NCBI GenBank assembly: GCA_963718915.1
Contig: CAVRAI010000015.1
Location: 600,001 to 632,000 of the forward strand
DNA: 32,000 nt
Direction: 5' to 3'
Origin: an uncultured Chloroflexia bacterium
GTDB taxonomy: Bacteria; Chloroflexota; Ktedonobacteria; Ktedonobacterales; JADMIN01
Numbering within the stretch: the stretch's first letter is position 1; every line of letters starts with the position of its first letter. A model generated the notes under the pieces. It ran no database searches. It worked only from the letters and a program-made list of their open reading frames with translations, and was not told the DNA's origin. A program made the translations under genes and the position numbers. Shown one piece after another: positions 2,122 to 29,360 of the stretch.

Positions 2122-2126
2122 AAACG

Positions 2127-10850: not shown

Positions 10851-11048
10851 ACCATGCAGCCTTTCAATTCGATCCCGATGCTGGCCCCTATCAATGTCAA
10901 CGTTTGTTTCGTTCAGATGTCATGTTGTAGGCAAGAAGTCAGAACGGTACAGTTCTCAACACCCTTCACCAACTTGCCAAGTGAACCGTGATACCATTAA
11001 GAAATGCCAGCCGAGCAACTGGTCAAGGTGCATTTAAGGAGACGCGAT

Positions 11049-11628: not shown

Positions 11629-11637
11629 TGCTATAGT
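11629..11637 (+). promoter_or_regulatory. Extended -10 promoter TGCTATAGT for the GNAT gene (would give a leaderless or near-leaderless mRNA)
   Basis: TGCTATAGT ends 7 nt before the ATG at 11645, and there is no SD between them. Confidence 0.35.
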
Positions 11638-11644
11638 GCCGGGT

Positions 11645-12220
11645 ATGGATACACATGAGTCGCATTCGCTCTGGCAGGGGAAGCTGATACGGCTGCGGGC
11701 CATCGAGCCGGGCGACTGGGAGACGTACTTCGCCTGGAACTTCGACGACGAACAAACACGCCCGCTCTACTTCATCCCTCCCCCGCAGTCACGCGAGGCG
11801 GTGCGGCGCTGGGCCGAGCAGGAGTCTACGCGGCCAATCGGCGATGATAACATCCGCTTCACGATTGCCCGCCTTGAAGATGACGCAGTGGTGGGCGACA
11901 TGGGCGTGCATGAGGCTGACCCACGTGTCGGCACATTCAGTTATGGCATCAACATCAAGCGCGAGGAGCAGCGTAAGGGCTACGCGAGCGAGGCTATTCG
12001 GCTGTTGCTCCGCTACTACTTCCAGGAACGCCGCTACCAGAAAGTGACCATCAAGGTCTACAGCTTCAACGAGGCGTCAATGCGTCTCCACGAAAGCCTG
12101 GGTTTCCAACTTGAGGGCCGCCTGCGCCGCACGGTCTATACCGACGGTGGTTTCCACGATGAAGTGATGTATGGAATGACCGTCGAGGAGTTCCGCGAGA
12201 AGCATCTGCCCAAAATGTGA
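11645..12220 (+). CDS. GNAT family N-acetyltransferase (RimJ/RimL-like)
   Basis: LRAIEPGDWETYFAWNFDDE at the N-terminus, and the acetyl-CoA-binding block QRKGYASEAIRLLLRYYFQERRYQKVTIKVYSFNEASMRLHESLGFQLEGRLR. The track ORF starts with GTG at 11636; the ATG at 11645 fits the promoter better. Confidence 0.85.
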   Translation: MDTHESHSLWQGKLIRLRAIEPGDWETYFAWNFDDEQTRPLYFIPPPQSREAVRRWAEQESTRPIGDDNIRFTIARLEDDAVVGDMGVHEADPRVGTFSYGINIKREEQRKGYASEAIRLLLRYYFQERRYQKVTIKVYSFNEASMRLHESLGFQLEGRLRRTVYTDGGFHDEVMYGMTVEEFREKHLPKM

Positions 12221-13001: not shown

Positions 13002-13895
13002 TCACTTGGCGTCGCTGGCGCGAAACGCTCGCCAGTCTCGGCGCACGGTATTTTCTAATTCCGCCGGGTACTCGAAGCCATAGCGCTCGGCCAGACGCCG
13101 CCCCAGCAGTGAGACAGTCTCCTGGTAGCGCTCAATCGCGTCGCAAATCTCCTCGCGGGTTTGCGTCGGCGCGCCACATAGGGTCAGTGGCTCGGCCCCG
13201 TTGACCGACTCAACGGCATGCACCAGTTCGGTGAGGCCATGGATACCGGAGAAGTGGTATGAGCTGGCATCGCAGCCGGTCGCATCGATGTACCACATGC
13301 GCATCAGCATATGCCAGTTCGCGTAGCTCGCGGCCGGGAACATGAGATCAAGCCCGCGATGCAACACCTTGCGATGCTTGTGGCTGTTGACCCAGAAGGC
13401 CACGACCAGTTCGCGCACGGCATCGCTGGTCACAGGCGTATGCACGGCCTCTGGCGCTTGATTGCTGACGTTAAGCCGCTCGGCGAGTGTGTCATCGCGA
13501 CATCCAAGAATCAGCACAGGCTCGTTGCCGGGCGCGGTCTCGCTACTCTGCACCAGCAGATCGAGAATATCGCCGCTCTGCAGAATCATGTGATGGATGA
13601 ACGCGCCATCTCCAAGCTTCACCAATTGCCTGGCCAGCGCTGGCCCATCGAGTATGGTGTGGAGGTCTGAGGTTTCCCAATCGGGTAGGTCGTCGGGCGA
13701 GACGGCAACGCGAAGATCGATGTCACTGTAGGGATCGCCCGTGCCAGCGGCGAGGCTGCCGCCAAGCCAGATCGCCACAACCTGTTTGTTCTCCCAGAGC
13801 CTGGGCGCGAGCATGCGAATCGCCTGCGACTGGGCAAGTGGCGGGAGATCATCCAGGCGCAGTTCAGCATGTGATTGTTCAGGCACGCCACTCAT
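13002..13895 (-). CDS. Pol-beta-superfamily nucleotidyltransferase with a helical C-terminal domain (ANT/KNTase-like architecture)
   Basis: NTase signature VVAIWLGGSLAAGTGDPYSDIDLRVAV. The track ORF extends to 13982 and overlaps the upstream gene by 56 nt; the internal ATG at 13895 (MSGVPEQ) removes the overlap. Confidence 0.7.
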   Translation of the reverse strand: MSGVPEQSHAELRLDDLPPLAQSQAIRMLAPRLWENKQVVAIWLGGSLAAGTGDPYSDIDLRVAVSPDDLPDWETSDLHTILDGPALARQLVKLGDGAFIHHMILQSGDILDLLVQSSETAPGNEPVLILGCRDDTLAERLNVSNQAPEAVHTPVTSDAVRELVVAFWVNSHKHRKVLHRGLDLMFPAASYANWHMLMRMWYIDATGCDASSYHFSGIHGLTELVHAVESVNGAEPLTLCGAPTQTREEICDAIERYQETVSLLGRRLAERYGFEYPAELENTVRRDWRAFRASDAK

Positions 13896-13926
13896 CGACG
13901 CAATTGTCCCTTCCTGGCTCCGAACT

Positions 13927-15378
13927 TCAATGGAAGAGTCGTGGGATGCGCTTCTTCCAGGCGGTCGGTAGGATGACGTCAATCGCGTCGTCCACCGTCA
14001 CGATGCCCAGCAGCGCGCCCTGGTCGTCCACCACTGGCAGCGCCAGCAGATCGTCGTCGGCGATGGTGTGCGCCACGACACGCTCGTTGTCCAGCGGATG
14101 CGCCATATGCTGCATCGGGTGCGCGATGTCGGCGATGCGCGCGTCGGGGTCCGCCAGCAGCAGGTCGCGTAGGGACACCATGCCCTCCAGCATACCCTCC
14201 GCCTCCAGCGAGATGCCGGGGTGAGGCGCGGCCACCGTTGGCGCTCCAGAAGTTCGGGGACGACCCTTTGCGCGCGCCTTCGCTCCGTTGTTCGTCCGAA
14301 CTGGCGCGGGCATATCGCCGCTGACAATGTAGATTTCCAACAGCCCTTCCGGCAGTGGATCATCCTGATCGTTGGCCGCCGCCTTCGCCCGCGCCCGCAG
14401 TGCCTCGATGACCTCCTCAACGGTGGCCCAATCGGGCACCGAGATGTAGTCAGTCGTCATGATGCCGCCCGCGCTGTCTTCCGGCCAGCCCAGCAGTTCC
14501 TGCACCTCACTCGCCTCCTCACGGTCCATGCGCTTGAGCAGTTCCTGCGCCTCCTCGGCGGTGATGCTTTGTAGGGCATCGGTCGCCTCGTCTGGCTCCA
14601 TCTCCTCCAGCAGATCGGCGGCGCGTTCGGGATCCATCGCCCGCAGAATCTGCCCCTGCTGCTCGTCTTCTAGCTCCTCCAGCGTGTCGGCGGCCTGCGC
14701 CTCGTCCAGATCATCCAGCAGTTTCGCGCCCTGTTGCGGTGTTAGTTGCTCCAGCAGCCGCGCCAGTTCCGCCGGGCGCATCACCTCGATCTTGGCGCGT
14801 GGCACCCGCAATCGCAACGTACCCTCACCCTCGTCCTCGTTGGCGACAGGCGCCACCTGTGACCAGTCGATCAGCGGCGCTTTGCGGGCGAAATCGCGCC
14901 CGAAGGCAGCCGTCACCGCCTGGCCGACACGCGCCCAGCCCATCCGGCGCAGCAGTGCGCTCGGGCCGATATCCACCGCGACCAGCCGCCATGTCTCGTC
15001 ACGACGGGACAGATCGAGGTCGTTGATACGCACAACACGTCGCCCCTCCAGGTCTACCACCTGGCGGTCGAAGAGGCCCTCTCGCAGCACCATCTCACCC
15101 TCGCGCCGCTGGAACCGACGCAGGTTCATTTGCTGAGTTGCCAGCTCCGCGCCCTCCGGAGTGAGGCTTCTCACCTCATCCAGGGGGATGAAGATGTCGC
15201 GCGAGCCGCGTGGCCCCTTGACCCGCGCCACCAATCCAACAACTGGTGGATAGATATCCATAGGGTTTGCTGGCGTCTCGGTCTGGGGCAGACGTACCAC
15301 CAGATCATGCAGCGCCGCCACCGCCTCGCCGTTCGGGTCACGAATGGGTTTGCCGAGGAATTCTGTGAGTGCGGGCAT
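13927..15378 (-). CDS. Soluble PRC-barrel / MgtE N-terminal domain / CBS-pair protein (MgtE cytosolic module without the membrane pore)
   Basis: 483 aa. Acidic MgtE-N repeats: LDDLDEAQAADTLEELEDEQQGQILRAMDPERAADLLEEMEPDEATDAL. CBS-type segments follow: GGIMTTDYISVPDWATVEEVIEAL and LPVVDDQGALLGIVTVDDAIDVI. There is no hydrophobic TM segment. SD AAAGGAG lies upstream, 68 nt after the Nramp-like stop. Confidence 0.85.
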   Translation of the reverse strand: MPALTEFLGKPIRDPNGEAVAALHDLVVRLPQTETPANPMDIYPPVVGLVARVKGPRGSRDIFIPLDEVRSLTPEGAELATQQMNLRRFQRREGEMVLREGLFDRQVVDLEGRRVVRINDLDLSRRDETWRLVAVDIGPSALLRRMGWARVGQAVTAAFGRDFARKAPLIDWSQVAPVANEDEGEGTLRLRVPRAKIEVMRPAELARLLEQLTPQQGAKLLDDLDEAQAADTLEELEDEQQGQILRAMDPERAADLLEEMEPDEATDALQSITAEEAQELLKRMDREEASEVQELLGWPEDSAGGIMTTDYISVPDWATVEEVIEALRARAKAAANDQDDPLPEGLLEIYIVSGDMPAPVRTNNGAKARAKGRPRTSGAPTVAAPHPGISLEAEGMLEGMVSLRDLLLADPDARIADIAHPMQHMAHPLDNERVVAHTIADDDLLALPVVDDQGALLGIVTVDDAIDVILPTAWKKRIPRLFH

Positions 15379-15446
15379 TGGAACGCTCCTTTATCGGCAT
15401 ATCGGCACGAAATTCAGCGCGGGTCATCGTAGCGAAAAGTGTCTCG

Positions 15447-16823
15447 TCATTGCAGGAACGGAATGCCGACGGCAGGGAGCACGATGCTGAGAATCATGAT
15501 GAATGAGAGCACCGTCAACACGCTGGTAATGCCCCAGGCAATAGTGTTCTGAAGGACGCTGTTGACGTATTTGCCCATGATGCGCCGGTCGTTGACCAGT
15601 CGCAGAATAAAGACCAGCAGAATCGGCAGCAGCATGCCATTGATGATCTGCGCCACGACGATGAGCGGGATCAGCGGCAGGCCAGGGATGAGCGCGACGA
15701 CCGCGCCCAGGATAATCATGCCGGTAAAGAGGCCCTGAAAGATGGGCGCATCTTTGAACGAGTACGAGACACCGCGCTCGAAGCCAAACGATTCACAGAC
15801 CGAGTACGCCGTGGCCAGCGGTACAACCGCCGCCGCCAGCAGCGACGCGCCGAGCAGCCCAACCATAAAGAGGACTGGGGCAAAGCGGCCCAGGAATGGC
15901 ACGAGCGCCATCGCGGCCTGAGTGGCGTCGTTGATCTGCACCCCCGCGCCATGGCTGGCGGCGAAGACCGTCGCGCCGGTCGCGATGACGATGGACGCGA
16001 CGACGATACCCGCGAAGATCGATCCACCATAGGTTTCGAGCCGCTCAGCGGGATAGTCCTCCATCTGGATGCCCTTCTCGGCAACGCTGGACTGGATAAA
16101 GAGCTGCATATACGGTGTGATCGTCGTGCCGACCGCGCCGACGAGCAACTGAAAATAGGTGGCGTTGAGATAGACCGTGGGAACGAAAGTGTGGTGCAGC
16201 ACATCGCCCCAGTCGGGATGCGCCATGATAGCGGCGATAGGATAGGCAAAGAAGGCGAACGCCATGAACAGAAAGATTTTTTCAACACGCTCATACGAGC
16301 CGCGCGTGACAATCAGCCAGATACCTATGGCGGCCAACGGCACCGTAATGTATTTGGAGATACCAATGAGTTCGCATGCGGCGGCAATTCCAGCAAATTC
16401 GGAGATGGTGATAAGGACATTGGCGAAGAAGAGTGTTGACATCGCGAAGGCAGAGCCGCGCACGCCGAAACGCTCGCGAATCAGGTCGGAGAGGCCCTCG
16501 CCGGTAGCCGCGCCCATCCGCGCGCACATTTCCTGGACGACCGCCAGCGCAATCGTGACAAGTACCAGCGCCCAGAGCAGCCCAAAGCCGTAGCGCGCGC
16601 CTACGCTCGACCAGGTGGCGACGGCGCCCGCGTCATTACCCGCGTTGGCGGCGATCAGGCCGGGACCAAGAAAAGCGAGAAAGAAGAGTGGTTTGGGGAA
16701 GCGGCCAGAACGCCAGCGGCGCAGATAGGCCAGGGGACGGCGAAAGGTGACTTCAGCGGCGCGGCGCGCGAGAAGCGTACGCTGCGTCAGCACATCGGTT
16801 GGGGTTGGAATTGGCTGCTCCAC
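15447..16823 (-). CDS. Nramp-family transporter with a non-canonical metal-binding site (Nramp-related, possibly Mg2+-type)
   Basis: Aligns without gaps to the canonical MntH at 17910-19289, but TM1 reads AGNDAGAVAT (not DPGN) and TM6 reads GTTITPYMQ (not GATVMPH). The track ORF starts with GTG at 16859; GTG at 16823 has GGGAGG 6 nt upstream. Confidence 0.85.
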   Translation of the reverse strand: MEQPIPTPTDVLTQRTLLARRAAEVTFRRPLAYLRRWRSGRFPKPLFFLAFLGPGLIAANAGNDAGAVATWSSVGARYGFGLLWALVLVTIALAVVQEMCARMGAATGEGLSDLIRERFGVRGSAFAMSTLFFANVLITISEFAGIAAACELIGISKYITVPLAAIGIWLIVTRGSYERVEKIFLFMAFAFFAYPIAAIMAHPDWGDVLHHTFVPTVYLNATYFQLLVGAVGTTITPYMQLFIQSSVAEKGIQMEDYPAERLETYGGSIFAGIVVASIVIATGATVFAASHGAGVQINDATQAAMALVPFLGRFAPVLFMVGLLGASLLAAAVVPLATAYSVCESFGFERGVSYSFKDAPIFQGLFTGMIILGAVVALIPGLPLIPLIVVAQIINGMLLPILLVFILRLVNDRRIMGKYVNSVLQNTIAWGITSVLTVLSFIMILSIVLPAVGIPFLQ

Positions 16824-16859
16824 GAAGGGCCTCCCGCATAATGGTGTTATGGCCGACAC

Positions 16860-17165
16860 TTTCCAGGTCGGCCTGCGGAAGGGTGCGGAGCGCCCAAAAT
16901 CAGGCTGGCAAAGCTGGAACGCGACGGCAGGTTAGCGACACGAGTTGGCTACGACTACTTGAGCCAGCGTCCATCGAACATTGTCCTCCTCTCCGTACGT
17001 TGCACACGTTTCATATGCACGGTGTATGCCAGTGTATGCCAGGCGCATGCTCGTACGGGAGAAACACCCACGCCTCTGCGCCCCAGACTGGTGATGAAAT
17101 GACCAGGGGGAATCGATACAGAGTGCGGGTCGTGGCGACGCCTGTGAAACCCGATGGCGTCGCGG
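16860..17165 (-). promoter_or_regulatory. Structured roughly 300-nt leader between tRNA-Pro and the Nramp-like gene
   Basis: Elements on the minus strand:
- an 8-bp hairpin at 17135-17163
- the hairpin CCCCCTGGT...ACCAG..GGGG (about 17078-17108)
- the tandem decamer GGCATACAC(T/C) x2 (17021-17040)
- an 8-bp hairpin (17001-17020)
- a stem 17052-17062/16989-16999 overlapping a strong SD (GGAGAGGAGG) that precedes an 8-codon uORF (16955-16981)
No known riboswitch core was recognised. Confidence 0.35.
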
Positions 17166-17239
17166 TCGGGGTGGCCGGATTCGAACCGGCGACCTCATGG
17201 TCCCAAACCATGCGCGCTGACCAACTGCGCTACACCCCG
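17166..17239 (-). tRNA. tRNA-Pro (anticodon UGG)
   Basis: The reverse complement folds as a cloverleaf: CGGGGTG TA GCGC AGTTGGTCA GCGC G CATGG TTTGGGA CCATG AGGTC GCCGG TTCGAAT CCGGC CACCCCG A. It is 74 nt, has G37 and does not encode CCA. Confidence 0.92.
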
Positions 17240-17257
17240 CAAAAGCCGTACTAAAAT

Positions 17258-17287
17258 AGTATAGGCATGCTCGCCTGAAGGCGTCAA
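17258..17287 (-). promoter_or_regulatory. Sigma-70-type promoter for tRNA-Pro
   Basis: The minus strand reads TTGACG (17287-17282), an 18-nt spacer, then TATACT (17263-17258). The -10 ends 18 nt before the mature tRNA 5-prime end. Confidence 0.45.
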
Positions 17288-17369
17288 GCATCTGAACGTC
17301 CTATAGGCCGCATAGCTACGGCGCTCAGCCCGTGCCTACCAGACGTCGCCCAGCCTCATGACAGGAGGA

Positions 17370-17840
17370 TCACTTGAATGTCATGAGAACCGCGCCGTTG
17401 TCGCCTTCGAGGGTCAGGGTGGCGCTGTCGATGTGATAACTGTCCACACGGGAGAGCGCCTGCGTGTACGCGACTTCTCGCTCCATCACACCGGCTTCGT
17501 CGCAGAACTTCAGCGTGCCGCGAAAGTCCTCGAAGTGGATCTGATTGCCTGTAATTGAGTAGGAGCCACCATAGGCATTGCATCCGCTACTTCCGCTGAA
17601 CGAGCGATCCTGTGACTTCAAGCTCAACGTGATCGGGTTGGCGTCGGAAAGTGGCAGATCATGGCCATCGACGATCAGTTGGGTGAGCGTCCAGGTGTGG
17701 CTGGTCAGCGATGCGGGGGCAGATTGCGCCTGCTGGACGACGAGGACAATCACAGCCACAACCAGTGCGACAGCGACTGTTGCCGCGACGACGGTAATCT
17801 GACGCCTCACGATGGCCCCTCCTCTTGTGGTGAGCATCAA
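17370..17840 (-). CDS. META-domain (HslJ-like) protein with an N-terminal membrane anchor
   Basis: 156 aa. The anchor is ITVVAATVAVALVVAVIVLVV. The META pattern is SFSGSSGCNAYGGSYSITGNQIHF...TLKFCDE...REVAYTQAL. Confidence 0.8.
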   Translation of the reverse strand: MMLTTRGGAIVRRQITVVAATVAVALVVAVIVLVVQQAQSAPASLTSHTWTLTQLIVDGHDLPLSDANPITLSLKSQDRSFSGSSGCNAYGGSYSITGNQIHFEDFRGTLKFCDEAGVMEREVAYTQALSRVDSYHIDSATLTLEGDNGAVLMTFK

Positions 17841-17909
17841 AAGAGGTTATACGCGATAGCGTCACGCCGACGCCTTCGTATGGGCTACCGAACGCAATTT
17901 ATGGGCCAC

Positions 17910-19289
17910 CTACCGCAACAGGCCGATGCCGAGTGTCTGCCCAATCAGCAGGATATTCAGCCCCAGAATGATCGTCGCGACGACCCAGCCAGCGATCATT
18001 GTTATCCGCCGGTTGACCAGCCCACCCATGATGCCGCGCCGACTGGTGAAGATCAACAGCGGCACGATGGCGAACGGTAGGACGAAGCTCAACACCACCT
18101 GGCTAATCACCAGCGTCTGGTCGGGATTCACGTTGAGCGCGATGAAGACCAGCGCGGGCAGCATCGTCAGCCCACGGCGCAGCCAGGTGGGAATCTTCCA
18201 GCCGAGAAAGCCCTCCATGATAATCTGGCCTGCCAGCGTGCCCACCGCCGACGACGAGAGGCCGGAGGCCACCAGCGCCACCCCAAAGATGATGGACGAG
18301 GCATTGCCGAGCAACGGTCGCAGTGTATGGAACGCGGTCTCCAGAGAGCCGATCTCGTTATGGCCGCTGCCAAAGAAGACCGATGCCGCCATGATGAGCA
18401 TCGCACCATTGACCAGCCCGGCCAGCCCAAGCGCGATGATGATATCAAGCCGCTCGAAGCGCAGGATACGTTTCGCGTCCTGCTCGTCACGCGGCTTAAT
18501 GCGATTCTGTGTGAGCGCCGAGTGCAGGTAGACGACGTGCGGCATCACCGTCGCGCCGAGGATGCCCACAGCCAGCAGGATACTGCCTGCCCCGGCAAAT
18601 TGAGGCACAAACGCATGGTAGACGATCTGCCCGCCATTCGGTCGCGCCAGGAATGTCTCGATCAGATAGCTGATGGCGATAACCCCCAGCAGCGAGGCGA
18701 TGATGGCCTCCAGCGGGCGGAAACCCAGCCGCTGCAACGCCAGGATGGCGAAGGTGGTGACACCTGTCAGAACGCCCGCCGCCAGCAGCGGAATATGGAA
18801 GAGCAGATTGAAGCCGATGGCCGCGCCCAGGAATTCCGCCAGGTCGGTCGCCATCGCGCCGATCTCGGCAATCACCCAGAGGCCCATGCTCACAGGACGG
18901 GGCAGGTACTCGCGGCACAGTTCGGGAAGGTTCTTGCCGGTGGCGATACCCAGTTTGGCCGAGAGCATCTGCAGCAGGATGGCCATCAGGTTGCTGGCAA
19001 GGATCACCCAGAGCAACAGGTAGCCAAACTGCGCGCCCGCCTGAATATTGGTGGCAAAGTTGCCGGGATCGATATAGGCGATGGCGGCGATGAACGCCTG
19101 CCCCAGAAAAGGGAGAACACTGCGCAGACTGAAACGCTGCGGCGCGTCAAGCGACTTTTCAGCGGCCGCAACGGTGCGCGCGCTGCTAGAGGCGACTCTG
19201 CGATGCACATTGAGTGTTGAGCGGAGCCGATCCATCCACGAACGCCGTACAAAATCCATAGAACTATCCTCGCCCCCACCTGATATCAT
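17910..19289 (-). CDS. mntH: Nramp-family divalent metal (Mn2+/Fe2+) transporter MntH, canonical
   Basis: 459 aa with canonical AYIDPGNFATN (TM1) and GATVMPHVVYLHS (TM6). Its start overlaps the mntR stop (ATGA at 19286-19289). Confidence 0.9.
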   Translation of the reverse strand: MISGGGEDSSMDFVRRSWMDRLRSTLNVHRRVASSSARTVAAAEKSLDAPQRFSLRSVLPFLGQAFIAAIAYIDPGNFATNIQAGAQFGYLLLWVILASNLMAILLQMLSAKLGIATGKNLPELCREYLPRPVSMGLWVIAEIGAMATDLAEFLGAAIGFNLLFHIPLLAAGVLTGVTTFAILALQRLGFRPLEAIIASLLGVIAISYLIETFLARPNGGQIVYHAFVPQFAGAGSILLAVGILGATVMPHVVYLHSALTQNRIKPRDEQDAKRILRFERLDIIIALGLAGLVNGAMLIMAASVFFGSGHNEIGSLETAFHTLRPLLGNASSIIFGVALVASGLSSSAVGTLAGQIIMEGFLGWKIPTWLRRGLTMLPALVFIALNVNPDQTLVISQVVLSFVLPFAIVPLLIFTSRRGIMGGLVNRRITMIAGWVVATIILGLNILLIGQTLGIGLLR

Positions 19290-20011
19290 CTGGATGCCAC
19301 GACCACCTGCACGGCATCAACCAGTTCGCCGCCAACCGTCTGTTCAGCCGACGAGTCGGCGTCCTCGATGCGCAGCCGCAGCAGACCGCCAAATGGCGCG
19401 CGCTCCAGCAGTGTGACTCGCGCGCCTGGCAGCAGGCGCAGGGAAGCGAGGTAGCGCAACATATCAGAATTGTCATCGTTCACGCGCCGCACAATCGCCT
19501 GATCTCCCGGCTGGAGTGCCGAGAGCCGCTGCGTGTGCTGTGGGATGACTTCGCCGGTTTTACTTGGAATGGGATCGCCGTGTGGGTCTTCGGTGGGATG
19601 GCCCAGCAGGGCATCCACGCGATCCTCAAAGTGCTCGGAAATCACATGTTCGAGGCGTTCTGCCTCAGCGTCCACTTCATCCCAGCTATAGCCGAGATGG
19701 CGCACCAGATAGAGTTCGAGCAGCCGATGATGGCGCACCAGCTCCGCCGCCGCCGCCGCCCCTTTGGGTGTTAGCTCCACTCCGCGATAGGGCGTATGGT
19801 CGACATACCCCTGCTCGGCAAGCGACTTGAAGAGTTGTGTCACCGTCGCGTCGCTCAACTGCCCATCCGGCTCCTGCGCCTGAAGCCGCTCGCGCATGGC
19901 GGAGGTGGTCACCCGCTCGCCGCGTTCGCGCAGCTTGTAGATGTACTTGAGACAATCCACAGCGCGTTTCGGCAGTTTGCGTATATCTTCCGCAGTCGAC
20001 TCTTCGGTCAT
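19286..20011 (-). CDS. mntR: DtxR/MntR-family metal-dependent transcriptional repressor with a C-terminal FeoA/SH3-like domain
   Basis: 241 aa with HHRLLELYLVRHLGYSWDEVDAEAERLEHVISEHFEDRVDALLGHPTEDPHGDPIP. The block AERLEHV carries Glu where DtxR has Cys102 (ACRWEHV), a Mn-type feature. SD GGGAGGGAGGAG lies upstream. Confidence 0.9.
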   Translation of the reverse strand: MTEESTAEDIRKLPKRAVDCLKYIYKLRERGERVTTSAMRERLQAQEPDGQLSDATVTQLFKSLAEQGYVDHTPYRGVELTPKGAAAAAELVRHHRLLELYLVRHLGYSWDEVDAEAERLEHVISEHFEDRVDALLGHPTEDPHGDPIPSKTGEVIPQHTQRLSALQPGDQAIVRRVNDDNSDMLRYLASLRLLPGARVTLLERAPFGGLLRLRIEDADSSAEQTVGGELVDAVQVVVASR

Positions 20012-20035
20012 AGGTGACTCCTCCCTCCCCCATTA

Positions 20036-20084
20036 ATTTTTAGAGGTCTAAAAATAGAATAGCGCATGGTTAAATTTCTGTCAA
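20036..20084 (-). promoter_or_regulatory. mntR-mntH promoter (TTGACA-17-TATTCT) with an abutting perfect 9-2-9 palindromic operator ATTTTTAGA-NN-TCTAAAAAT
   Basis: On the minus strand the -35 TTGACA is at 20084-20079, followed by a 17-nt spacer and the -10 TATTCT at 20061-20056. The palindrome at 20055-20036 covers the expected transcription start, 25-45 nt upstream of the ATG at 20011. Confidence 0.6.
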
Positions 20085-20197
20085 CAGGAAGGTAAAAATC
20101 GGGAATCGCGGCGGGAAACGCAAAGAGCGCTCCCTCCGAAAGTAGAAGGAGCGCTCGCCAGGGATGGTGGAGTATGAACACACGACGTGAGGCGATC

Positions 20198-20863
20198 TCA
20201 ACTGCCACAGGGCGGGGTTGGGTTGACAACAGTACCGGGCTTGAAGGATGCCAGCATCTCCTGCCAGATACCCATATAGCGTTCAGTAATATTGCTGGAA
20301 TCGCCATGCGTCGCGGGGAGAAGTTTAATGCCGACCACGATACCATTCGAGACAAATGAGACACTGATACTCGGGAGTCCTACTGTGCCTTGAGGTGTAG
20401 AACCGAGGACAAGGTTGTTGGATTGATATCCTTTGATTCCCGGTCCGACAGTAACAATCATGGCGCCAGGAATCGCCTGCGGACACTGATTGGCTGCGTA
20501 GCCGCTAGTAGCGCCACCGAATTCAACGTCGAGTCCATTTGACGGATTGGAGTCAGCATCAGACCATGTTACAGAGTCGCCCACGAACCCCGGTGGTTGA
20601 GGATTTGGGTTGAGGTACTGAGCATCAGCGGGAATCGCAAAGGTAAACCCGAACATGCTATCGGTGACTCGTTGATAGGCTTTGCCGTCCACGAAAAAAG
20701 GCGTCGCGGTTGGCGATGCTGTCGCGGTCGGTTGGGATGTTGGGGTTGGTGTCGGAGCAGCCGCAACAGACGTGCTGGGTGTACTTTGGCCACAGCCCAC
20801 CAGCAGGCTCACGAGTAGCGCCAACCCTGTCAGCAGCCCGACTAGATGGCGGTTTCGATGCAT
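20198..20863 (-). CDS. Hypothetical lipoprotein (paralog 1)
   Basis: 221 aa. Lipobox LLVSLLVGCGQ, then a T/P/A-rich linker, a conserved core VTDSMFGFTFAIPAD and the C-terminus ERYMGIWQEMLASFKPGTVVNPTPPCGS. Confidence 0.75.
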   Translation of the reverse strand: MHRNRHLVGLLTGLALLVSLLVGCGQSTPSTSVAAAPTPTPTSQPTATASPTATPFFVDGKAYQRVTDSMFGFTFAIPADAQYLNPNPQPPGFVGDSVTWSDADSNPSNGLDVEFGGATSGYAANQCPQAIPGAMIVTVGPGIKGYQSNNLVLGSTPQGTVGLPSISVSFVSNGIVVGIKLLPATHGDSSNITERYMGIWQEMLASFKPGTVVNPTPPCGS

Positions 20864-20893
20864 GGTGTTCAGGCCTCTCGCTGTGGGGCGATC

Positions 20894-21547
20894 TCAACTG
20901 TCGCAGATGGGAGTTGGATTGGTGAAGGTACCGGGTTGGAACGACGCCAGCATCTCCTGCCAGATGCCACCATACCGCTCCGTCAAGTTCCCCTGTGTCT
21001 GTGGTGTGAGCGTAATGAAGATAACATTGCCATTGGAGACAAACGATACACTGATTTCTGGTATTGCTGCTGCACCTTGTGGTGCTGATCCAATGACGAG
21101 GTCATCCTGCTCGTACCCAGTGATTCCTTTCCCAACAGAAACCTGTTTGGCGCCAGAAATTGACTGAGGGCATTGGTTAGCGGTATAACCAGTGGTCGCT
21201 CCACCAAAGTCGACGTTGAGCACCGTTGATGTTCCGGTATCGCGGTCGGACCACGTATTTGTATCACCCCCGACCTGTGGCTGAGGACTTATACTGAGCT
21301 GCCGAGTATCAGCAGGAATCGCGAAACTGAAACCGAACATACTATCGGTGACCAGCTTGTACGAGACGCCACCGACCGTGAACGGCGTCGCGGTTGGCTG
21401 TGTCGTCGCGGTAGCCTGAGTGAGCGGTGTTGTGGTGGCCGATGGTAACGAGCTGACATCTCCCACGCCACAGCCCGCGAGTAATATTAGCAACATCACT
21501 CCTATTGCCATCCCTGACACGCGGGAATAGCGGTTTTTGCGCATCAT
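20894..21547 (-). CDS. Hypothetical lipoprotein (paralog 2)
   Basis: Lipobox MLLILLAGCGVG, core VTDSMFGFSFAIPAD and C-terminus ERYGGIWQEMLASFQPGTFTNPTPICDS. The track ORF begins at 21604; the ATG at 21547/21544 follows SD AAGGAG (21556-21551). Confidence 0.75.
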   Translation of the reverse strand: MMRKNRYSRVSGMAIGVMLLILLAGCGVGDVSSLPSATTTPLTQATATTQPTATPFTVGGVSYKLVTDSMFGFSFAIPADTRQLSISPQPQVGGDTNTWSDRDTGTSTVLNVDFGGATTGYTANQCPQSISGAKQVSVGKGITGYEQDDLVIGSAPQGAAAIPEISVSFVSNGNVIFITLTPQTQGNLTERYGGIWQEMLASFQPGTFTNPTPICDS

Positions 21548-21973
21548 AGTCTCCTTCACATGTATGATCGAGCAAGGTATTAGGTTCTGGTCGCAGTTTT
21601 TCAAAACGCTAAAGCAATATGGCAGTAAGTACGATGCTCAGCAATAATACCTGACACATTTTGCGTTGGCAAGAGGGTTTATACGCAGATTCACCGTATG
21701 TATTTCAGGTCACTTGATTCGGGATGTTCCGGTCTCTACGCATGGGAAGAACGCTCCGTCGTGCTTCATCTCCCGCACGCATGCGCCACGAAGCGCCTCC
21801 CCTCGACGCTCGTATTGCGGGCGTGCTATCATGTGCCTGCATTTATAGCCTGATTCGCTGAGAGGGATTGCCTTCGTCTTTCAGACCAGTCCGCGCTATT
21901 TTTGCGTGGTAGGACACGTCTGCCGCCAGTAGGAAGGTCGTTCGCCATCGTGCCCATCTCGCCAGAATCCGCG

Positions 21974-22627
21974 ATGCCATCGGGGCCGCGCCGCCTGCTG
22001 CTCGCAACCACGAATCCCCATAAAATCGAAGAATTTCGCGCGATTCTTGCGGGGCTTCCCTACGGGTTGGTCAGCCCGAACGATATTGGACTGCCGCTGG
22101 AGGTTGAGGAAACTGGGGCGACCTTTGCCGAGAATGCGATGCTGAAGGCGACCGCCTGGGCCGATGCGGCTGACATGCTGACACTTGCGGAGGACTCAGG
22201 GCTGGAGATCGACGCGCTCGACGGCGAGCCGGGCATCTATTCTGCCCGCTGGGCTGGAGAAGATGTTTCCTACGAGGAACGGTTTCGCATCCTGCTGGGG
22301 CGGCTGGCTGATGTGCCTGCCGAGCGGCGCACCGCCCGCTACCGTGCCGCGATTGCGATAGCCCGGTCGGCGCCAGTGGGCGTGCTGGGATTGTTCGAGG
22401 GAACATTGGAGGGGCAGATTGCCTTTGCCCCAGCGGGCAGCGGTGGCTTTGGCTACGATCCCATCTTTTTCGTGCCAGAACAGCAGCGCACCGTAGGCCA
22501 GATGAGCGCAGAGGGCAAGCATCTGATCAGCCATCGGGCGCGGGCTGCCGCGGCGGCGCGCGAATTGCTGCAACAACTGGCGGAGACGTCCGCCAATGAA
22601 GCGCCGCAGCCAGACGAGGGAAACTGA
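21974..22627 (+). CDS. rdgB: Non-canonical purine NTP (dITP/XTP) pyrophosphatase RdgB/HAM1 family
   Basis: LLLATTNPHKIEEFRAIL, EETGATFAENAMLKA, DSGLEIDALDGEPGIYSARW, GGFGYDPIF and SHRARA are all typical of the family. The track ORF starts at 21902; the ATG at 21974 gives the usual N-terminus. Confidence 0.9.
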   Translation: MPSGPRRLLLATTNPHKIEEFRAILAGLPYGLVSPNDIGLPLEVEETGATFAENAMLKATAWADAADMLTLAEDSGLEIDALDGEPGIYSARWAGEDVSYEERFRILLGRLADVPAERRTARYRAAIAIARSAPVGVLGLFEGTLEGQIAFAPAGSGGFGYDPIFFVPEQQRTVGQMSAEGKHLISHRARAAAAARELLQQLAETSANEAPQPDEGN

Positions 22628-22688
22628 CGGGCACACGCGAACGTCACCGGCCAGCGCCGACGGGGCGCCTAGGAATGGAACGGAGAGA

Positions 22689-25661
22689 ATGGTGCGCTCT
22701 CAGCCAGTGCGAGTCGCCATTGACCTGGAAACGACCGGGTTGTACCACGAGCAGGATGTCATCATCGAGATCGGCGCGGTCAAATTCGCCGGAAGCGAGG
22801 TGATCGATACCTTCGCCTCGCTCGTCTCGATCAATATGTCATTGCCCTATCGTATTCAGCGGCTGACCGGCATTCGCCCGGATGAGCTGCGTTCCGCGCC
22901 CCCGCTCTCTTCGCTACATGGGCAACTGCGGACATTTCTGGGCGATGCGCCATTGGTGGGGCATAACGTTGGCTTCGACGTCGCGTTCCTCCAGAAGGTG
23001 GGGTTGGCCCGCCGCAATCCATTGATCGATACGTGGGAGCTGGCGTCGCTGCTGCTGCCGAACCAGCCGAACTACAGCCTGGGCGCCCTGGGTGAGGCGC
23101 TCGGCATCCCCGCTGATGTGCGCCACCGCGCGCTGGCCGACGCGCAACAGACCCGCGAGCTGTTTTTGCTCCTGCTGCAACGCATCGAGACCATCGAGGC
23201 GTCGCTAGCCCGCACCCTGCGCGACCTGCCCGCCGCTCCCGAGTGGACGCCGCGCTATTTCCTGCGTGGGGGAAATCAACGCCGGGAGCAGCCCGCGAAT
23301 GCCTTTGGTCGCGCGCTGACCGCATCGCTGGGAGACCAGTTCGCGCGCCAGTTAGGCGTTGATCCCGATGTCCTGGCGCTGGCGGTTGCCCAGGAAGCGC
23401 CACCCGCCGAATCCACAGCCGGTGAATCCACAGCAGGCGCCGAAGCGCCAGCGCCACCGGAAGCGCTCGCGCCCGCCGTAGACTCGCTAGCGCGGGAGAT
23501 GGTCGCCACGCTCGACGAAGGTGGCGCACTGCTGGTAGAGGCGGCGCCGAACGATCTCGATGCGGCGCTCGAGCCGATTGCGCGCTGGCTGGTCGCCCAC
23601 AAGGATGAGCGCATAATGGTGGCTGTCGCCACGCAGGAGCGGCTGGCGCAGGTGGCGCGTACAACGCTACCGGCGCTATTCCGGCGCATTGGGGTATCAC
23701 TGCCAATAGCCGAGGTGATGGGCCGTGACGACTATCTTTGCCTGCATCGTTGGTTCGGTCAAGCGCGGATCCCTGACGGCGAGAGCTTCTCGCGCGAGAT
23801 GACACGCGGGCTGGCCCGGCTGGCCGTCTGGCTCCAAACAACGCGAACGGGCGCGCGGGTGGATGTGGCACTTTCCGGCCCTGAGAACAGCGCGTGGGAC
23901 CGGGTGCGTGGCGGCGCTGAACACGTCGAGGCGATGGCTACGTGCAACTATCGCCGCGATGGCTACTGCTTCTTCGATCGAGCCCGCCAGACCGCACAGG
24001 ATGCGCGCGTGCTCGTCATCACGCATGATGCGCTGGTGGCGTACCTGGCCGGTGGCGATGACGACAGCCTGCCGGAGTGCAGGCGCGTTCTCGTGCTGGA
24101 TGCCCATGTCTTCGAGGAAAACGTACGCAAGGCGCGCGAGGTGATCCTGGACCAGCGCCGGATGAGCAGCGTACTTGACGATCTGGCGCGGGAGACGAAT
24201 GGCAAGCTCGGTGGCGGACTCTTGCGTCAGGCGGCGGGCCGTATCGAACATGCCAGCCTGCGCAACTGGTATGACCAGGTAGCCCAGGCCCGGCAAGCGA
24301 GCGAGCGCCTCTTTGTGGCGTTGCGACGGCTGCTGCAAGAGGTTCATGCGCATGGCAGCGGCGAACAGGGCCATGCCGAGCCGCAAGAGCAGCGGGTGCT
24401 CCGGCTGGATGCGCGCGCACGCCAGAACGATGCATGGGATGATGTGGCGGCGGCGTGGCGCACGACCGATGCCCGGCTGGCGGCGGTGGCGAAGGTCGCC
24501 AGTGAGACGGCTAGAGCGCTCTCCGGCGGGAAGAATAAGCAGGAGCCTGATAGCCTCGCCTCGGAGCTTGCCGCCGTGGCCTGGCGGCTGAACCAGATGC
24601 GCGATGACGGCGCCCGCCTGTTACTGGATGAGGGCGCCATCGAGCCGATGGTGGTCTGGTTGCGGCTGCCGTATCCACAAAACAATGACCGCGGCGATGC
24701 CGGTGGGCGTGGCAACCGCTGGAATGGACGCAAAGGGCCGCGCAAGTCGTCGGAAAACGGCGGCCAGTCTCAGGTCCAGAGCCAACAGGAAGCGCCCGCC
24801 GAGGTTCAGACTGAGGGCGTGTCGCCTGCTCCAGCGGAAGAAGTTGAGCCGACGCCGGAGCTACATGGCGAGCCGACTGATATCGGTCCGCTGCTGCAGC
24901 CGCTGAGCGCGCCGGGCCGGTCGCTGGCGCTCGCGGGATCGGCGCTGACTGTGGCGGGCGACTTCGAGACGATTCGTATAAGCCTTGGGCTGCCCGACGG
25001 CGTGCGTTTTCGCAGCCTCTCCAGTGATCGGAGCGCGCAGACGTTGCTCTGCCTGCCAGTGGATGTGCCGGAGCCAAACTCGCCACACTACCAGCAGCGG
25101 CTGAACGCGGCGCTGATTGGGCTGGCGTCGGCGCTTGAGGGGCGGCTAGTAGCGATCTTCTCTTCGCATGCCGCGCTGCGGAGCGCCTGGATGGGGATTC
25201 GCCGCGAACTGGAACAGAAGGACATTATGGTGCTGGCGCAGGGACAGGACGGTTCGGCGCGTCAGCTCTGGCGTACCTTCGAGACGGAGTCGCGGGTGGT
25301 GCTATTGGGCGCTGGCGCCTTCTGGGATGGCGCCGCTCGTACGGTGAATCCGCCTGCCTGCGTCGTGGTGACACGGATGCCGTTCCCGGCGCTGAGCGAT
25401 CCACCGGTGGCGGCGCGCGCCGAACGCTGGCCCGATCCGCAGAGCGGCTTTGTCGTGCCACAGGGGGCGCTCCGTCTGCGCCAGGCGCTCAATGGCCTCG
25501 CCTGGAGCCATCAGCGGCGTAACGCGGTTGTCCTCTTCGACCGCAGGATACAGACGCGCGGCTATGGCCCGGCGATTCTGGGAACGCTGCCACGCTGTGA
25601 GCAGTACGAGGAGTCGCTGGCGCAGATCACCGAACGCATCGCCGAGTGGGTGGGAGAATAG
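22689..25661 (+). CDS. dinG: DinG-like protein: intact N-terminal DnaQ/DEDDh 3-prime-5-prime exonuclease fused to an XPD/DinG helicase-like scaffold with degenerate ATPase motifs
   Basis: Exonuclease motifs: ExoI VAIDLETTGL, ExoII GHNVGFDVAFL, ExoIII HRALADAQQT. The helicase-like region reads LLVEAAPNDLDAALEP where the Walker A box is expected, VLVLDAHVFEEN where DEAH is expected and QALNGLAW where QxxGRxxR is expected. FWDGAA...VVVTRMPFPALSDP is conserved. The track ORF starts at 22596 and overlaps rdgB. Confidence 0.85.
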   Translation: MVRSQPVRVAIDLETTGLYHEQDVIIEIGAVKFAGSEVIDTFASLVSINMSLPYRIQRLTGIRPDELRSAPPLSSLHGQLRTFLGDAPLVGHNVGFDVAFLQKVGLARRNPLIDTWELASLLLPNQPNYSLGALGEALGIPADVRHRALADAQQTRELFLLLLQRIETIEASLARTLRDLPAAPEWTPRYFLRGGNQRREQPANAFGRALTASLGDQFARQLGVDPDVLALAVAQEAPPAESTAGESTAGAEAPAPPEALAPAVDSLAREMVATLDEGGALLVEAAPNDLDAALEPIARWLVAHKDERIMVAVATQERLAQVARTTLPALFRRIGVSLPIAEVMGRDDYLCLHRWFGQARIPDGESFSREMTRGLARLAVWLQTTRTGARVDVALSGPENSAWDRVRGGAEHVEAMATCNYRRDGYCFFDRARQTAQDARVLVITHDALVAYLAGGDDDSLPECRRVLVLDAHVFEENVRKAREVILDQRRMSSVLDDLARETNGKLGGGLLRQAAGRIEHASLRNWYDQVAQARQASERLFVALRRLLQEVHAHGSGEQGHAEPQEQRVLRLDARARQNDAWDDVAAAWRTTDARLAAVAKVASETARALSGGKNKQEPDSLASELAAVAWRLNQMRDDGARLLLDEGAIEPMVVWLRLPYPQNNDRGDAGGRGNRWNGRKGPRKSSENGGQSQVQSQQEAPAEVQTEGVSPAPAEEVEPTPELHGEPTDIGPLLQPLSAPGRSLALAGSALTVAGDFETIRISLGLPDGVRFRSLSSDRSAQTLLCLPVDVPEPNSPHYQQRLNAALIGLASALEGRLVAIFSSHAALRSAWMGIRRELEQKDIMVLAQGQDGSARQLWRTFETESRVVLLGAGAFWDGAARTVNPPACVVVTRMPFPALSDPPVAARAERWPDPQSGFVVPQGALRLRQALNGLAWSHQRRNAVVLFDRRIQTRGYGPAILGTLPRCEQYEESLAQITERIAEWVGE

Positions 25662-28048: not shown

Positions 28049-28133
28049 CTTCTATTCCCCTTCATTCCCGGCGCGTTCGACATCTCTCACGGATGCGCGG
28101 CGTATTCTCTCACCGAAGACAACCTGAACTATC

Positions 28134-29246
28134 TTAACATGCTGGGAGGGTCAGTTGCACCGCGCCGCCGTCGGTGGTCAGGACGACCGGCGTCCGCCCG
28201 CTGACGTACACCGTGTCCTCGCTGGTGCTGGCTAGCGAGCCAAACAGCGCCACCTGCGGCGCGCCACCCGCCGTCAGCGCGAACATCGGCTCCATCGCGC
28301 CAGGACTGCCAATGGCCCACTGCGCCGGAGCTGTCCCCACATTGTGCATCTGAAAGCTCACGCCGCCAGCGCCACAGACTGGTGGGCTGACTGTTATCGT
28401 GCCGAGAATAATCGGCCCGGAAGGCGCGGCGGTGGGTGTCGCCGTCTGAACGGACGTCGCCGTCTGAACGGCGGTGGTTGGCGTCGGCAGCAGCCGCGTC
28501 GCAAAGCTGAGCCACGAGGGCGCATTGCCGCTTGCCACCGGAATCATTATGCCGACTCCAGCCGCGATCCCCACCACCAGCAGCAGGAACACCGCGGCGA
28601 TTCGTCCCAGCGTCCGTAGCAACCGACGCCCCCAGCCTGGCGACTCTGGTGAGACGTCGTCATCGCGCTCCTCCAGTTCATCGTTGGCGAGGGCGGGCGC
28701 GGAAACAATCGGGGTAGCGGATGGCGCGGTCGCGGTCGCAACGGCAGCCGCCGATGTGGCAGGGGCGGAGGGCGCGACAGATGCGGCGGCGGCTGGAACT
28801 TTTGCCGGAGCAGTGCTCATTCCCAGCGCGGCGCGAACTGTCCGGCGCACCTCTTCGGCGATGGTGATGGCTTCCTGCGCGCGGGCGTAGTCAATCAGGC
28901 GCTTGGGGTCGTCGTGCGTGCGCGAGTTGCGGTCACGGTTGAGTTGATTGATGCGCGGGCCAAGCAGATTGGGCAGGCGCAGGCCAGCCTCCGCGGCGGC
29001 GCGCAGCAGGTCGGGCATGCTGTTGCTTGCGGCCGCCTCCTGCCAGGATTGTGGCGCCGTCCCCGCTGGCTTCTGGGCGATCTGCGTATAGAGATAGCCC
29101 TGCACCATATTCTTGATAGCCGAGACAGCATCTGCCAGCGCCGAGACGTAGATGAGATCGTTGCTCAACAGCCTGCGCGAGCTATAGAGAAACGCGGTTG
29201 CCTTGTCGAATCTATCGTTTGCCTGGTCCTGAAATGTGTTCGCCAT
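28134..29246 (-). CDS. Membrane-tethered HEPN-like protein: N-terminal cytoplasmic HEPN-type four-helix domain (RNSRTH), Ala/Pro-rich linker, one TM helix, extracytoplasmic beta-rich domain
   Basis: INQLNRDRNSRTHDDPKRLIDYARAQEAITIAEEV fits the Rx4-6H HEPN motif and its helix context. RRLLRTLGR followed by IAAVFLLLVVGIAAGVGIMIPV forms the TM helix, N-in by the positive-inside rule. The C-terminal 110 aa are bounded by Cys residues. The ATG at 29246 has GGAGGG 4 nt upstream and lies downstream of the TGCTATAGT promoter; the track ORF start at 29297 lies upstream of that -10. Confidence 0.65.
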   Translation of the reverse strand: MANTFQDQANDRFDKATAFLYSSRRLLSNDLIYVSALADAVSAIKNMVQGYLYTQIAQKPAGTAPQSWQEAAASNSMPDLLRAAAEAGLRLPNLLGPRINQLNRDRNSRTHDDPKRLIDYARAQEAITIAEEVRRTVRAALGMSTAPAKVPAAAASVAPSAPATSAAAVATATAPSATPIVSAPALANDELEERDDDVSPESPGWGRRLLRTLGRIAAVFLLLVVGIAAGVGIMIPVASGNAPSWLSFATRLLPTPTTAVQTATSVQTATPTAAPSGPIILGTITVSPPVCGAGGVSFQMHNVGTAPAQWAIGSPGAMEPMFALTAGGAPQVALFGSLASTSEDTVYVSGRTPVVLTTDGGAVQLTLPAC

Positions 29247-29283
29247 ACTACCCTCCGAGTCCGAATCTTCCAAACGCCGGACT

Positions 29284-29292
29284 ACTATAGCA
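29284..29292 (-). promoter_or_regulatory. Extended -10 promoter (TGCTATAGT) for the HEPN-TM gene
   Basis: The reverse complement of 29284-29292 is TGCTATAGT, about 38 nt upstream of the ATG at 29246. Confidence 0.4.
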
Positions 29293-29351
29293 GCCATTCG
29301 AGGTCATGCCAACAGGACCATCGGGTGAGAGCAGGTGGCGGCGACACGGCA

Positions 29352-29360
29352 TGCTATGCT
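29352..29360 (+). promoter_or_regulatory. Extended -10-like promoter (TGCTATGCT) for the DUF711 gene
   Basis: TGCTATGCT lies 40 nt upstream of the ATG at 29400 and is divergent from the HEPN-TM promoter 60 nt away. Confidence 0.3.

Follow-up and report, generated by a model that had tools for sequence, protein, structure and literature searches.

The DNA analysed here is a stretch of 32,000 nucleotides (nt) from an uncultured Chloroflexia bacterium of the order Ktedonobacterales (contig CAVRAI010000015.1, positions 600,001 to 632,000), and this whole stretch is referred to as the window. Near its end, on the minus strand, lies a gene whose product joins an N-terminal domain assigned to the HEPN superfamily to a tether, one predicted transmembrane (TM) helix and an Ig-like C-terminal domain; we call it the HEPN-TM protein. 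An earlier note on this DNA had proposed a membrane-tethered HEPN-like domain with an Ire1-like logic, and the present computational analysis follows up that proposal. The gene and its parts are as follows, in window positions.

28134 to 29246, minus strand: HEPN-TM coding sequence, 370 codons and a stop, with start and end shared by 68 homologues
29251 to 29256, minus strand: ribosome-binding site GGAGGG, 5 nt ahead of the ATG at 29246, its GGAGG invariant in an alignment of six loci
28824 to 29246, minus strand: HEPN domain, residues 1-141, predicted to be cytoplasmic (AlphaFold2 model, Foldseek, PF05168)
29130 to 29132, minus strand: codon of D39, an invariant acidic residue of helix 2 (residues 33-58; alignments, AlphaFold2 model)
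28914 to 28931, minus strand: R-N-x3-H motif, R106-N107...H111 (R-N-S-R-T-H; alignments of 31 and 18 sequences)
28629 to 28823, minus strand: residues 142-206, predicted cytoplasmic low-complexity tether rich in Ala, Pro, Ser and Thr and ending in an acidic patch (composition)
28545 to 28628, minus strand: basic patch RRLLRTLGR (207-215) and single TM helix (216-234) with G226xxxG230xG232 (hydrophobicity, charge, alignment)
28422 to 28544, minus strand: residues 235-275, with the juxtamembrane segment PVASGxAPxWL on the outer side and a Thr/Pro stalk that includes a duplication at 28437-28472 (sequence, alignment)
28137 to 28421, minus strand: Ig-like beta-sandwich ectodomain, residues 276-370 (AlphaFold2 model, Foldseek, Cys conservation)

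The product begins with MANTF at 29246 and is 370 amino acids (aa) long. The start given in the earlier note was correct, while its length of 371 aa had counted the stop codon. In the alignment, the N-termini of all homologues read M/V-ANTF or MP(N/D) at the position equivalent to 29246, GGAGGG lies just upstream, and the -10 element of the promoter-like site (29284-29289) lies downstream of the next candidate, ATG 29297. The start was therefore set at 29246. The 387-aa open reading frame (ORF) from ATG 29297 was rejected on the same three grounds, namely the homologue starts, the position of the ribosome-binding site and the position of the -10 element.

Codon-level comparison of the window gene with three close orthologues gave a ratio of nonsynonymous to synonymous substitution rates (dN/dS) of 0.13-0.25 for the whole gene. 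The constraint was strongest in the HEPN domain (0.04-0.08), and values of 0.08-0.20 and 0.12-0.30 were obtained for the TM region and the ectodomain, respectively. The linkers ranged from 0.15 to 1.0, with the cytoplasmic tether at 0.15-0.33, and nowhere in the gene did the ratio exceed 1, save for one 23-codon linker in one comparison. The GC content at the gene, 0.64, is typical for the window. About 100 homologues keep the motif, the same architecture and the Cys pair, which is beyond chance. Judged by its sequence, the HEPN-TM gene is real, expressed-looking and under purifying selection.

The N-terminal domain was modelled by AlphaFold2 with 21 family members as the input alignment. The model of residues 1-141 is an all-alpha four-helix bundle with a mean predicted local distance difference test (pLDDT) value of 90.7 and a predicted template-modelling score of 0.87, in keeping with the N-terminal helical domain described before. 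Its helices span residues 4-28 and 33-58, followed by two short insert helices (66-73 and 77-86) and then by 95-107 and 120-140. When the model was compared with the PDB by Foldseek, the best match was AF0298 (2hsb), a HEPN domain, with template-modelling scores (TM-scores) of 0.68/0.75 and a root-mean-square deviation of 2.8 Å. The next matches were the HepT/SO_3166 toxins and the HEPN domain of sacsin, with TM-scores of about 0.5-0.6, and the non-HEPN helical proteins in the PDB list stayed below 0.3. Hence the top structural matches are HEPN domains, and the model is not the non-HEPN bundle that the earlier note had allowed for. A Foldseek search of the same model against viral structures gave nothing informative.

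Independently of the fold, the Pfam HEPN profile (PF05168) matches 11 of the 21 members over nearly the whole profile, with a best E-value of 1.9e-6. One full-length member (P0065) reaches 24.1 bits against the curated cut-off of 22 bits and is aligned over positions 3-113 of 117. Single-sequence searches of Pfam, PADLOC, NCBIfam and PDB sequences with the full-length protein found no match.

The R-N-S-R-T-H peptide (Rx4H), quoted earlier from the translation, is indeed present there, and the R-N-x3-H motif is the most conserved feature of the HEPN-TM family. The R/H pair holds throughout: neither R106 nor H111 varies among 31 full-length sequences or in a wider set reaching down to 24-30% identity (about 40 sequences inspected), among which N107 is replaced once, by T. 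In HEPN RNases the motif is located where helix 3 ends or in the loop behind it, and helix 2 contributes a further conserved acidic residue near the motif (PMC3710099). The model matches this description, with R106 and H111 where helix 3 ends and in the loop after it and D39 in helix 2. K/R45 stands six residues after D39, a spacing of x5 as against the Ex3[KR] of typical HEPN domains. After H111 most members continue with D-D-P, and no Tyr is present. Fold, profile and motif geometry thus support the assignment of the N-terminal part as a HEPN domain whose Rx4H site is intact and invariant. It is a divergent member of the superfamily, nearest to PF05168/HEPN-T, and probably an RNA-cutting domain.

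The Ala/Pro/Ser-rich linker with an acidic patch, recognised before, follows the HEPN domain and is a tether of which 41 of 65 residues are A, P, S or T and which ends in DELEERDDD. In a set of 102 members it is between 29 and 224 aa long, with a median of 79, and its sequence is unalignable. RRLLRTLGR precedes a single TM helix, as had been read from the sequence, and 92 of 97 members contain exactly one hydrophobic segment. In these 97 members the mean number of K and R residues is 5.2 in the 15 residues before the TM segment versus 0.28 after it. L223, G226 and G230 (a GxxxG pattern) and P236 are invariant around the helix, P243 is also invariant, and the juxtamembrane segment PVASGxAPxWL is conserved among homologues. 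No N-terminal signal peptide is present. Thus, given the charge bias, the single hydrophobic segment, the missing signal peptide and a Cys pair confined to the C-terminal domain, the protein is predicted to adopt an N-in/C-out single-pass topology, with the HEPN domain inside and the Ig-like domain outside, which is where the positive-inside rule had led the earlier note to place the C-terminal domain.

The stalk carries the 18-nt tandem duplication that had been reported, although the two copies at 28437-28472 are not exact (16 of 18 bases identical, compared by eye). A repeat finder confirmed the 18-nt spacing, and Tandem Repeats Finder returned only an unrelated 6-nt repeat in the stalk region and not the duplication. 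It is not conserved in close homologues.

The ectodomain had been described as beta-rich, bracketed by Cys residues and roughly 110 aa in size. The first two properties stand, and the size is 95 aa. It is modelled as an all-beta fold with a pLDDT of 91.7. C291 and C370 are invariant, C370 being the last residue of the protein; 94 of 97 members have exactly two Cys residues after the TM helix, and 94 of 97 end in Cys. We infer that the domain would be stapled by a C291-C370 disulfide. Foldseek returned only generic Ig-like matches (PCuAC, ASH/PapD-like and MSP), with a best E-value of 1.7e-3 and a TM-score of about 0.5. A role as a copper chaperone of the PCuAC type, the best fold match, was considered and rejected, as the TM-score is about 0.5-0.58, the identity is 14% and no His or Met is invariant. 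A sequence profile of the ectodomain retrieved nothing but fragments of family members, hence no other architecture shares this domain. Its mean column identity is 48% versus 66% in the HEPN domain.

Three promoter-like elements accompany the gene.

29284 to 29312, minus strand: promoter-like site of the HEPN-TM gene, TTGGCA-17 nt-TGcTATAGT, with an extended -10 (-10 at 29284-29289); 10 of 12 matches plus TG in a scan
29352 to 29360, plus strand: promoter-like element of the DUF711 gene, TGcTATGCT, conserved in 5 of 6 orthologous loci
28129 to 28139, minus strand: TGTTAAGATAG, extended -10-like (TGnTAnnAT), overlapping the last Cys codon and the stop (locus comparison)

All three share the extended -10 shape TGnTA...T. 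In front of the HEPN-TM gene, TTGGCR and CTGCTATAGT are kept in 5 of 6 orthologous loci while the flanking sequence has diverged. The divergent DUF711 gene and the two TGnTAT(A/G)(G/C)T elements mentioned in the earlier note are thus in place; the shared region is however 153 bp, taking the DUF711 start as ATG 29400, and not 110 bp.

The third element lies at the other end of the gene, next to a downstream gene for a flavoprotein resembling ferredoxin/rubredoxin reductases (Pyr_redox_2 and Rubredoxin_C). The intergenic regions between the two genes are 59-223 nt long and unalignable, save for the element TGY-TA[AG]-[GAT]AT, in which positions 3-4 of the hexamer vary and TA...AT is fixed. Where the flavoprotein gene follows, the element is found in 16 of 17 loci; the two loci that lack the gene also lack the element and read TGC TGA followed by unrelated sequence. 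In the window it occurs once versus 0.02 occurrences expected, and a divergent locus (L021) carries a perfect TATAAT 13 nt past the HEPN-TM stop instead. On this pattern, the element is probably the flavoprotein gene's own promoter, belonging to the neighbour rather than to the HEPN protein. The tight adjacency of the two genes would then be explained without a functional link, because the promoter is embedded in the end of the HEPN-TM gene. The idea that the genes are adjacent because they form an operon or are functionally linked was accordingly rejected, as the oxidoreductase gene appears to have its own -10 element overlapping the HEPN-TM stop. A scan between the two genes found no terminator. 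The arrangement of the elements suggests that the HEPN-TM gene is transcribed on its own. As the C-terminal Cys is kept where the DNA element is absent, the residue reflects a constraint at the protein level. In a close orthologue (L007, about 1115-1140) the stop position reads GAG (TGT GAG AAT AG), the ORF is longer by several codons and the -10-like element is altered; this may be a genuine mutation or stem from misassembly of a low-coverage contig of a metagenome-assembled genome (MAG).

The HEPN-TM family is tiny: when 1.84 billion cluster representatives were searched exhaustively with a profile, it comprised 49 proteins or clusters. The complete ones are all 330-530 aa long with the same architecture, and every named member comes from a Ktedonobacterales or Ktedonobacteria MAG; a cluster look-up of divergent members yielded no further taxonomy. 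A scan of species-representative genomes gave 14 loci, among them a single one from a complete genome of 5.07 Mb. The neighbours are stable housekeeping genes, with the divergent DUF711 gene on one side and the flavoprotein gene on the other, the latter being downstream in 17 of the 19 loci first checked and also in L021. Further frequent neighbours encode a YiiD-type thioesterase, a DinG-like exonuclease-helicase, Ham1 and GlnA. Even a member with a HEPN domain at only about 31% identity keeps this synteny, which is lost in one divergent subgroup. In the window, Ham1 (dITP/XTP pyrophosphatase family) overlaps by 32 nt with a fusion protein of 1021 aa that joins an RNase_T exonuclease to a DinG-type helicase C-terminal domain (21902-25661, plus strand), and the pair is syntenic with the HEPN-TM locus in L001, L017, L018 and L021.

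Among the neighbours checked, both in the window and in related loci whose genes were called, no MNT gene, antitoxin gene or recognised defence gene was found, which agrees with the earlier statement that no adjacent MNT or antitoxin gene is visible. One MNT-like gene does occur farther away in the window:

13002 to 13982, minus strand: NTP_transf_2/Polbeta (MNT-like) protein of 326 aa with a long C-terminal part without an assigned fold (domain scan)

It was rejected as a partner antitoxin, being 14 kb away and without a counterpart in 20 related loci by tblastn. In L006 (1500-2228, minus strand) a KNTase_C protein is encoded three genes from the HEPN-TM gene and in no other locus with called genes; KNTase_C is a HEPN-related substrate-binding domain of nucleotidyltransferases. 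The checked neighbours include no mobile-element gene either, apart from one IS605/TnpB insertion. This insertion in L001 (4481-5836, minus strand) encodes an IS605-type TnpB (OrfB_IS605/Cas12f1-like_TNB) and sits between the DUF711 and HEPN-TM genes, within the otherwise conserved promoter region. PADLOC gave no match to the HEPN-TM protein, the 20 window ORFs scanned contain no cas genes, and in the window and related loci no sigma factor gene is adjacent and no protease gene is conserved nearby. The stable housekeeping synteny, the typical GC content and the absence of a defence, mobile-element or PADLOC signal argue for a cellular function that is inherited vertically and specific to the lineage, and against a mobile toxin or defence-island gene. 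The suggestion of phage contact and defence in the earlier note is therefore not borne out.

We tentatively favour, at somewhat less than an even chance, a reading in which the HEPN-TM protein is a membrane-tethered HEPN RNase switched by pairing and possibly responding to the state of the envelope. It would be a metal-independent endoribonuclease whose activity depends on how its chains pair or cluster in the membrane. In canonical HEPN nucleases the site is made up of two Rx4-6H motifs, one from each side of a dimer and opposed to one another (Csx28 paper); since each chain here carries one HEPN domain, pairing of chains should be needed. The GxxxG face of the TM helix and/or the ectodomain would set the pairing and hence the local HEPN concentration, and pairing could respond to the cell-envelope state. 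The signal might pass by proximity through the flexible tether, as in Ire1 clustering, rather than by a rigid conformational change, and such a route is favoured because the disordered tether is so variable in length. Near-consensus promoter and strong ribosome-binding site imply steady expression, so the nuclease must be restrained or specific. The domains, the conservation of the motif, the topology signals, the purifying selection, the gene's conserved promoter and its confinement to a vertically inherited lineage are shown by the analysis; that the protein cuts RNA, that it must dimerise to do so and that it is controlled from outside is what we infer. The protein could also be a non-defence counterpart of Ire1, which we consider rather unlikely: its ectodomain would report the envelope state (for example oxidative folding, or wall integrity in filamentous monoderm bacteria) and cluster the protein, and the HEPN domains, brought face to face, would cleave membrane-proximal RNAs in a manner resembling regulated Ire1-dependent decay (RIDD).

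Several points weigh against a nuclease switched by pairing. Given the 8-fold variation in tether length, the ectodomain may play no part in catalysis, TM helices commonly carry GxxxG motifs, and neither Foldseek nor the sequence profile revealed a recognisable ligand site or relatives of the ectodomain. The Foldseek E-values for the HEPN model are weak, 0.05 at best, as is usual with small helical bundles. The window protein itself scores only 14.4 bits to PF05168, under the 22-bit cut-off, and the profile of the N-terminal domain found no HEPN match among PDB sequences, only chance coiled-coil-like ones. In addition, certain PF05168-type HEPN domains are non-nucleases (PMC3710099).

The last point leads to a reading in which the HEPN domain does not cut RNA at all and serves as a nucleotide-, RNA- or protein-binding module, or as a membrane pore like Csx28, which combines a TM helix with a HEPN fold and acts as a pore rather than a nuclease (Csx28 paper). 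PF05168-type HEPN domains include substrate-binding non-nuclease forms, and the closest structure, AF0298, comes from a group that usually lacks the motif His (PMC3710099). However, R, N, H and the helix-2 Asp are invariant across the family (N with one exception), as in HEPN families with catalytic activity (PMC3710099). Csx28 has a divergent motif and a HEPN domain next to its TM helix, whereas the disordered stretch of 29-224 aa that separates the two in the HEPN-TM family is ill-suited to a defined pore; we therefore consider a non-catalytic role very unlikely. A constitutive housekeeping RNase, performing substrate-specific RNA processing or decay at the membrane like RNase Y, with an ectodomain that only anchors or positions it in the wall, deserves more weight and is still on the unlikely side. 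It would fit the single locus in one complete genome, the vertical inheritance, the synteny with housekeeping genes (DUF711, flavoprotein, DinG-like helicase, Ham1 and GlnA) down to members of about 30% identity, the conserved near-consensus promoter with its strong ribosome-binding site, the very long tether of variable length and the lack of an adjacent antitoxin. What speaks against it is that the family is restricted to one Ktedonobacterales lineage and hence is not general housekeeping, and that the purifying selection on the ectodomain, PVASGxAPxWL and the TM glycines exceeds the needs of a plain anchor.

HEPN RNases are also common as abortive-infection, toxin-antitoxin and CRISPR-ancillary effectors (PMC3710099), so an anti-phage toxin has to be weighed, in which the ectodomain senses phage contact or envelope damage and unleashes an indiscriminate HEPN RNase. 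An ectodomain that evolves faster than the HEPN domain, by column identity and by dN/dS, would be in line with this, and an intact motif without a visible antitoxin suggests built-in control. Nevertheless, PADLOC found no match, the checked neighbours contain no recognised defence or mobile genes save the IS605/TnpB in L001, the GC content is that of the window, the orthologues are strictly syntenic and neither patchy nor horizontal in distribution, and dN/dS is not above 1 outside the one linker in one comparison. We therefore consider a defence toxin very unlikely. Regulated intramembrane proteolysis is the least probable of these explanations. In that scheme site-1/site-2 cleavage, triggered outside, would free the HEPN domain to dimerise and act in the cytoplasm, as with anti-sigma factors. 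An effector inside, a single TM helix and an outside domain make up the architecture of such a substrate, helix-destabilising Gly and Pro residues are invariant in or just after the TM helix (G226, G230, P236 and P243), and the disordered tether could be a region of degradation or processing. On the other hand, the Gly and Pro residues are equally explained by helix packing, no protease or sigma factor gene is conserved nearby, and the N-terminal domain is a HEPN domain, not an anti-sigma domain, with no adjacent gene for an extracytoplasmic function (ECF) sigma factor.

A surface domain directly coupled to an RNA-cutting enzyme is known in eukaryotes (Ire1) and was predicted for bacteria from sequence in 2013. 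The HEPN-TM family offers a clean test case of this idea, with a conserved canonical site, an unambiguous single-pass topology, a folded outside domain and no antitoxin. If it is true that membrane pairing switches the RNase on, a new bacterial signalling route would result; should the Ire1-like reading be true, a surface signal would go straight to RNA stability, without a kinase or transcription factor. Even if the protein is only a tethered housekeeping RNase, it would be a new membrane RNase for an under-studied phylum. As the family is confined to uncultured Ktedonobacterales, experimental work needs a heterologous host.

Apart from the HEPN-TM locus, several other features were observed in the window. 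A metal-homeostasis cluster at 13927-20011 contains a protein with MgtE_N and CBS domains, two Nramp transporters (15447-16859 and 17910-19289) and, at 19286-20011, a DtxR-type repressor with a FeoA domain; tRNA-Pro(TGG) lies at 17164-17239 between the two Nramp genes. On the minus strand at 1006-3299, an FHA-domain protein (1006-2121) adjoins a Ser/Thr protein kinase (2127-3299) that has an FHA domain at its C-terminus. Two segments are low in GC, 10001-12000 (0.52) and 20001-22000 (0.54), compared with 0.58-0.67 in the other bins. The former has few long ORFs, and the latter contains the ORFs 20198-20863 and 20894-21604, both on the minus strand and without a Pfam or NCBIfam match.

Compared with known systems, the HEPN-TM domain is closest to PF05168/HEPN-T proteins such as AF0298 and sacsin, with which it shares a four-helix up-down bundle and an insert between helices 2 and 3. 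PF05168 is the only Pfam family that the HEPN-TM family matches repeatedly and over the full length, the sequence similarity being marginal. The known PF05168/HEPN-T proteins are soluble and either stand alone or are fused or adjacent to MNT, and the AF0298-like ones usually lack the motif His (PMC3710099). In contrast, R and H are both retained in the HEPN-TM family, MNT is missing, and the HEPN domain is joined to a TM helix and an ectodomain.

The MNT-HEPN systems (MntA-HepT, DUF86) share the HEPN fold and the Rx4H site, and HepT structures are among the top matches of the model. HepT is AMPylated on the Tyr of its Rx4HxY motif. The HEPN-TM protein differs in having no adjacent MNT, a membrane anchor, a non-mobile context and H-D-D-P without the Tyr; since both the MNT and the Tyr after the motif His are missing, it is not an MNT-HEPN toxin. 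RNase Y, a membrane-anchored endoribonuclease of Firmicutes with an HD/KH catalytic fold and no ectodomain, resembles it in the single-pass membrane tether on a cytoplasmic endoribonuclease, and its catalytic fold is unrelated to HEPN. Csx28, the accessory protein of type VI-B CRISPR, likewise combines a TM helix with a cytoplasmic HEPN-fold domain. Its TM helix is however N-terminal, its motif is divergent and non-catalytic, and it forms an octameric pore linked to Cas13b, whereas the HEPN-TM protein has a canonical motif, a TM helix C-terminal to the HEPN domain, a long tether, an ectodomain and no cas genes nearby. Butters gp57r was rejected as a relevant comparison because it has no TM helix.

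The likeness to Ire1 consists of a sensor across the membrane, one TM helix and a cytosolic HEPN-type RNase activated by self-association. The KEN domain of Ire1 and RNase L is circularly permuted (PMC3710099), while the HEPN-TM domain has the canonical helix order. The orientation of the HEPN-TM protein is also reversed, with the HEPN domain N-terminal, and a Pfam scan of it found no kinase domain, unlike Ire1. The resemblance is best regarded as an analogy of logic, with no sequence relationship beyond the superfamily. The Ire1-like logic of the earlier note thus stands in its geometry, with domains predicted on opposite sides of one TM helix, and does not stand as a novelty. In 2013, Anantharaman et al. 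described three membrane HEPN architectures, namely DUF4145 with an N-terminal WP-TM, an alpha-helical domain followed by a TM segment and an Abi2/Swt1 HEPN domain, and a HEPN domain followed by two TM helices and a Zn ribbon; for such bacterial proteins they predicted that a surface stimulus leads to RNA cleavage, with the analogy to Ire1 made explicit (PMC3710099).

Our literature searches found no experimental study of these three groups. Including a search with HEPN and Ktedonobacter, they found no paper on the HEPN-TM family, although the broad membrane/HEPN search was swamped by unrelated papers. As in the HEPN-TM protein, the 2013 groups join a cytoplasmic HEPN domain with a catalytic motif to inner-membrane segments. 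The HEPN-TM family differs from them in lineage and HEPN subfamily and in its layout of an N-terminal PF05168-like HEPN domain, a long tether, one TM helix and an Ig-like ectodomain. Even the group in which the HEPN domain comes first has two TM helices and a cytoplasmic Zn ribbon without an outside domain, whereas the HEPN-TM family has a folded one. The HEPN-TM layout is new, and the concept of bacterial signalling from the surface to RNA was already predicted in 2013 for three other architectures.

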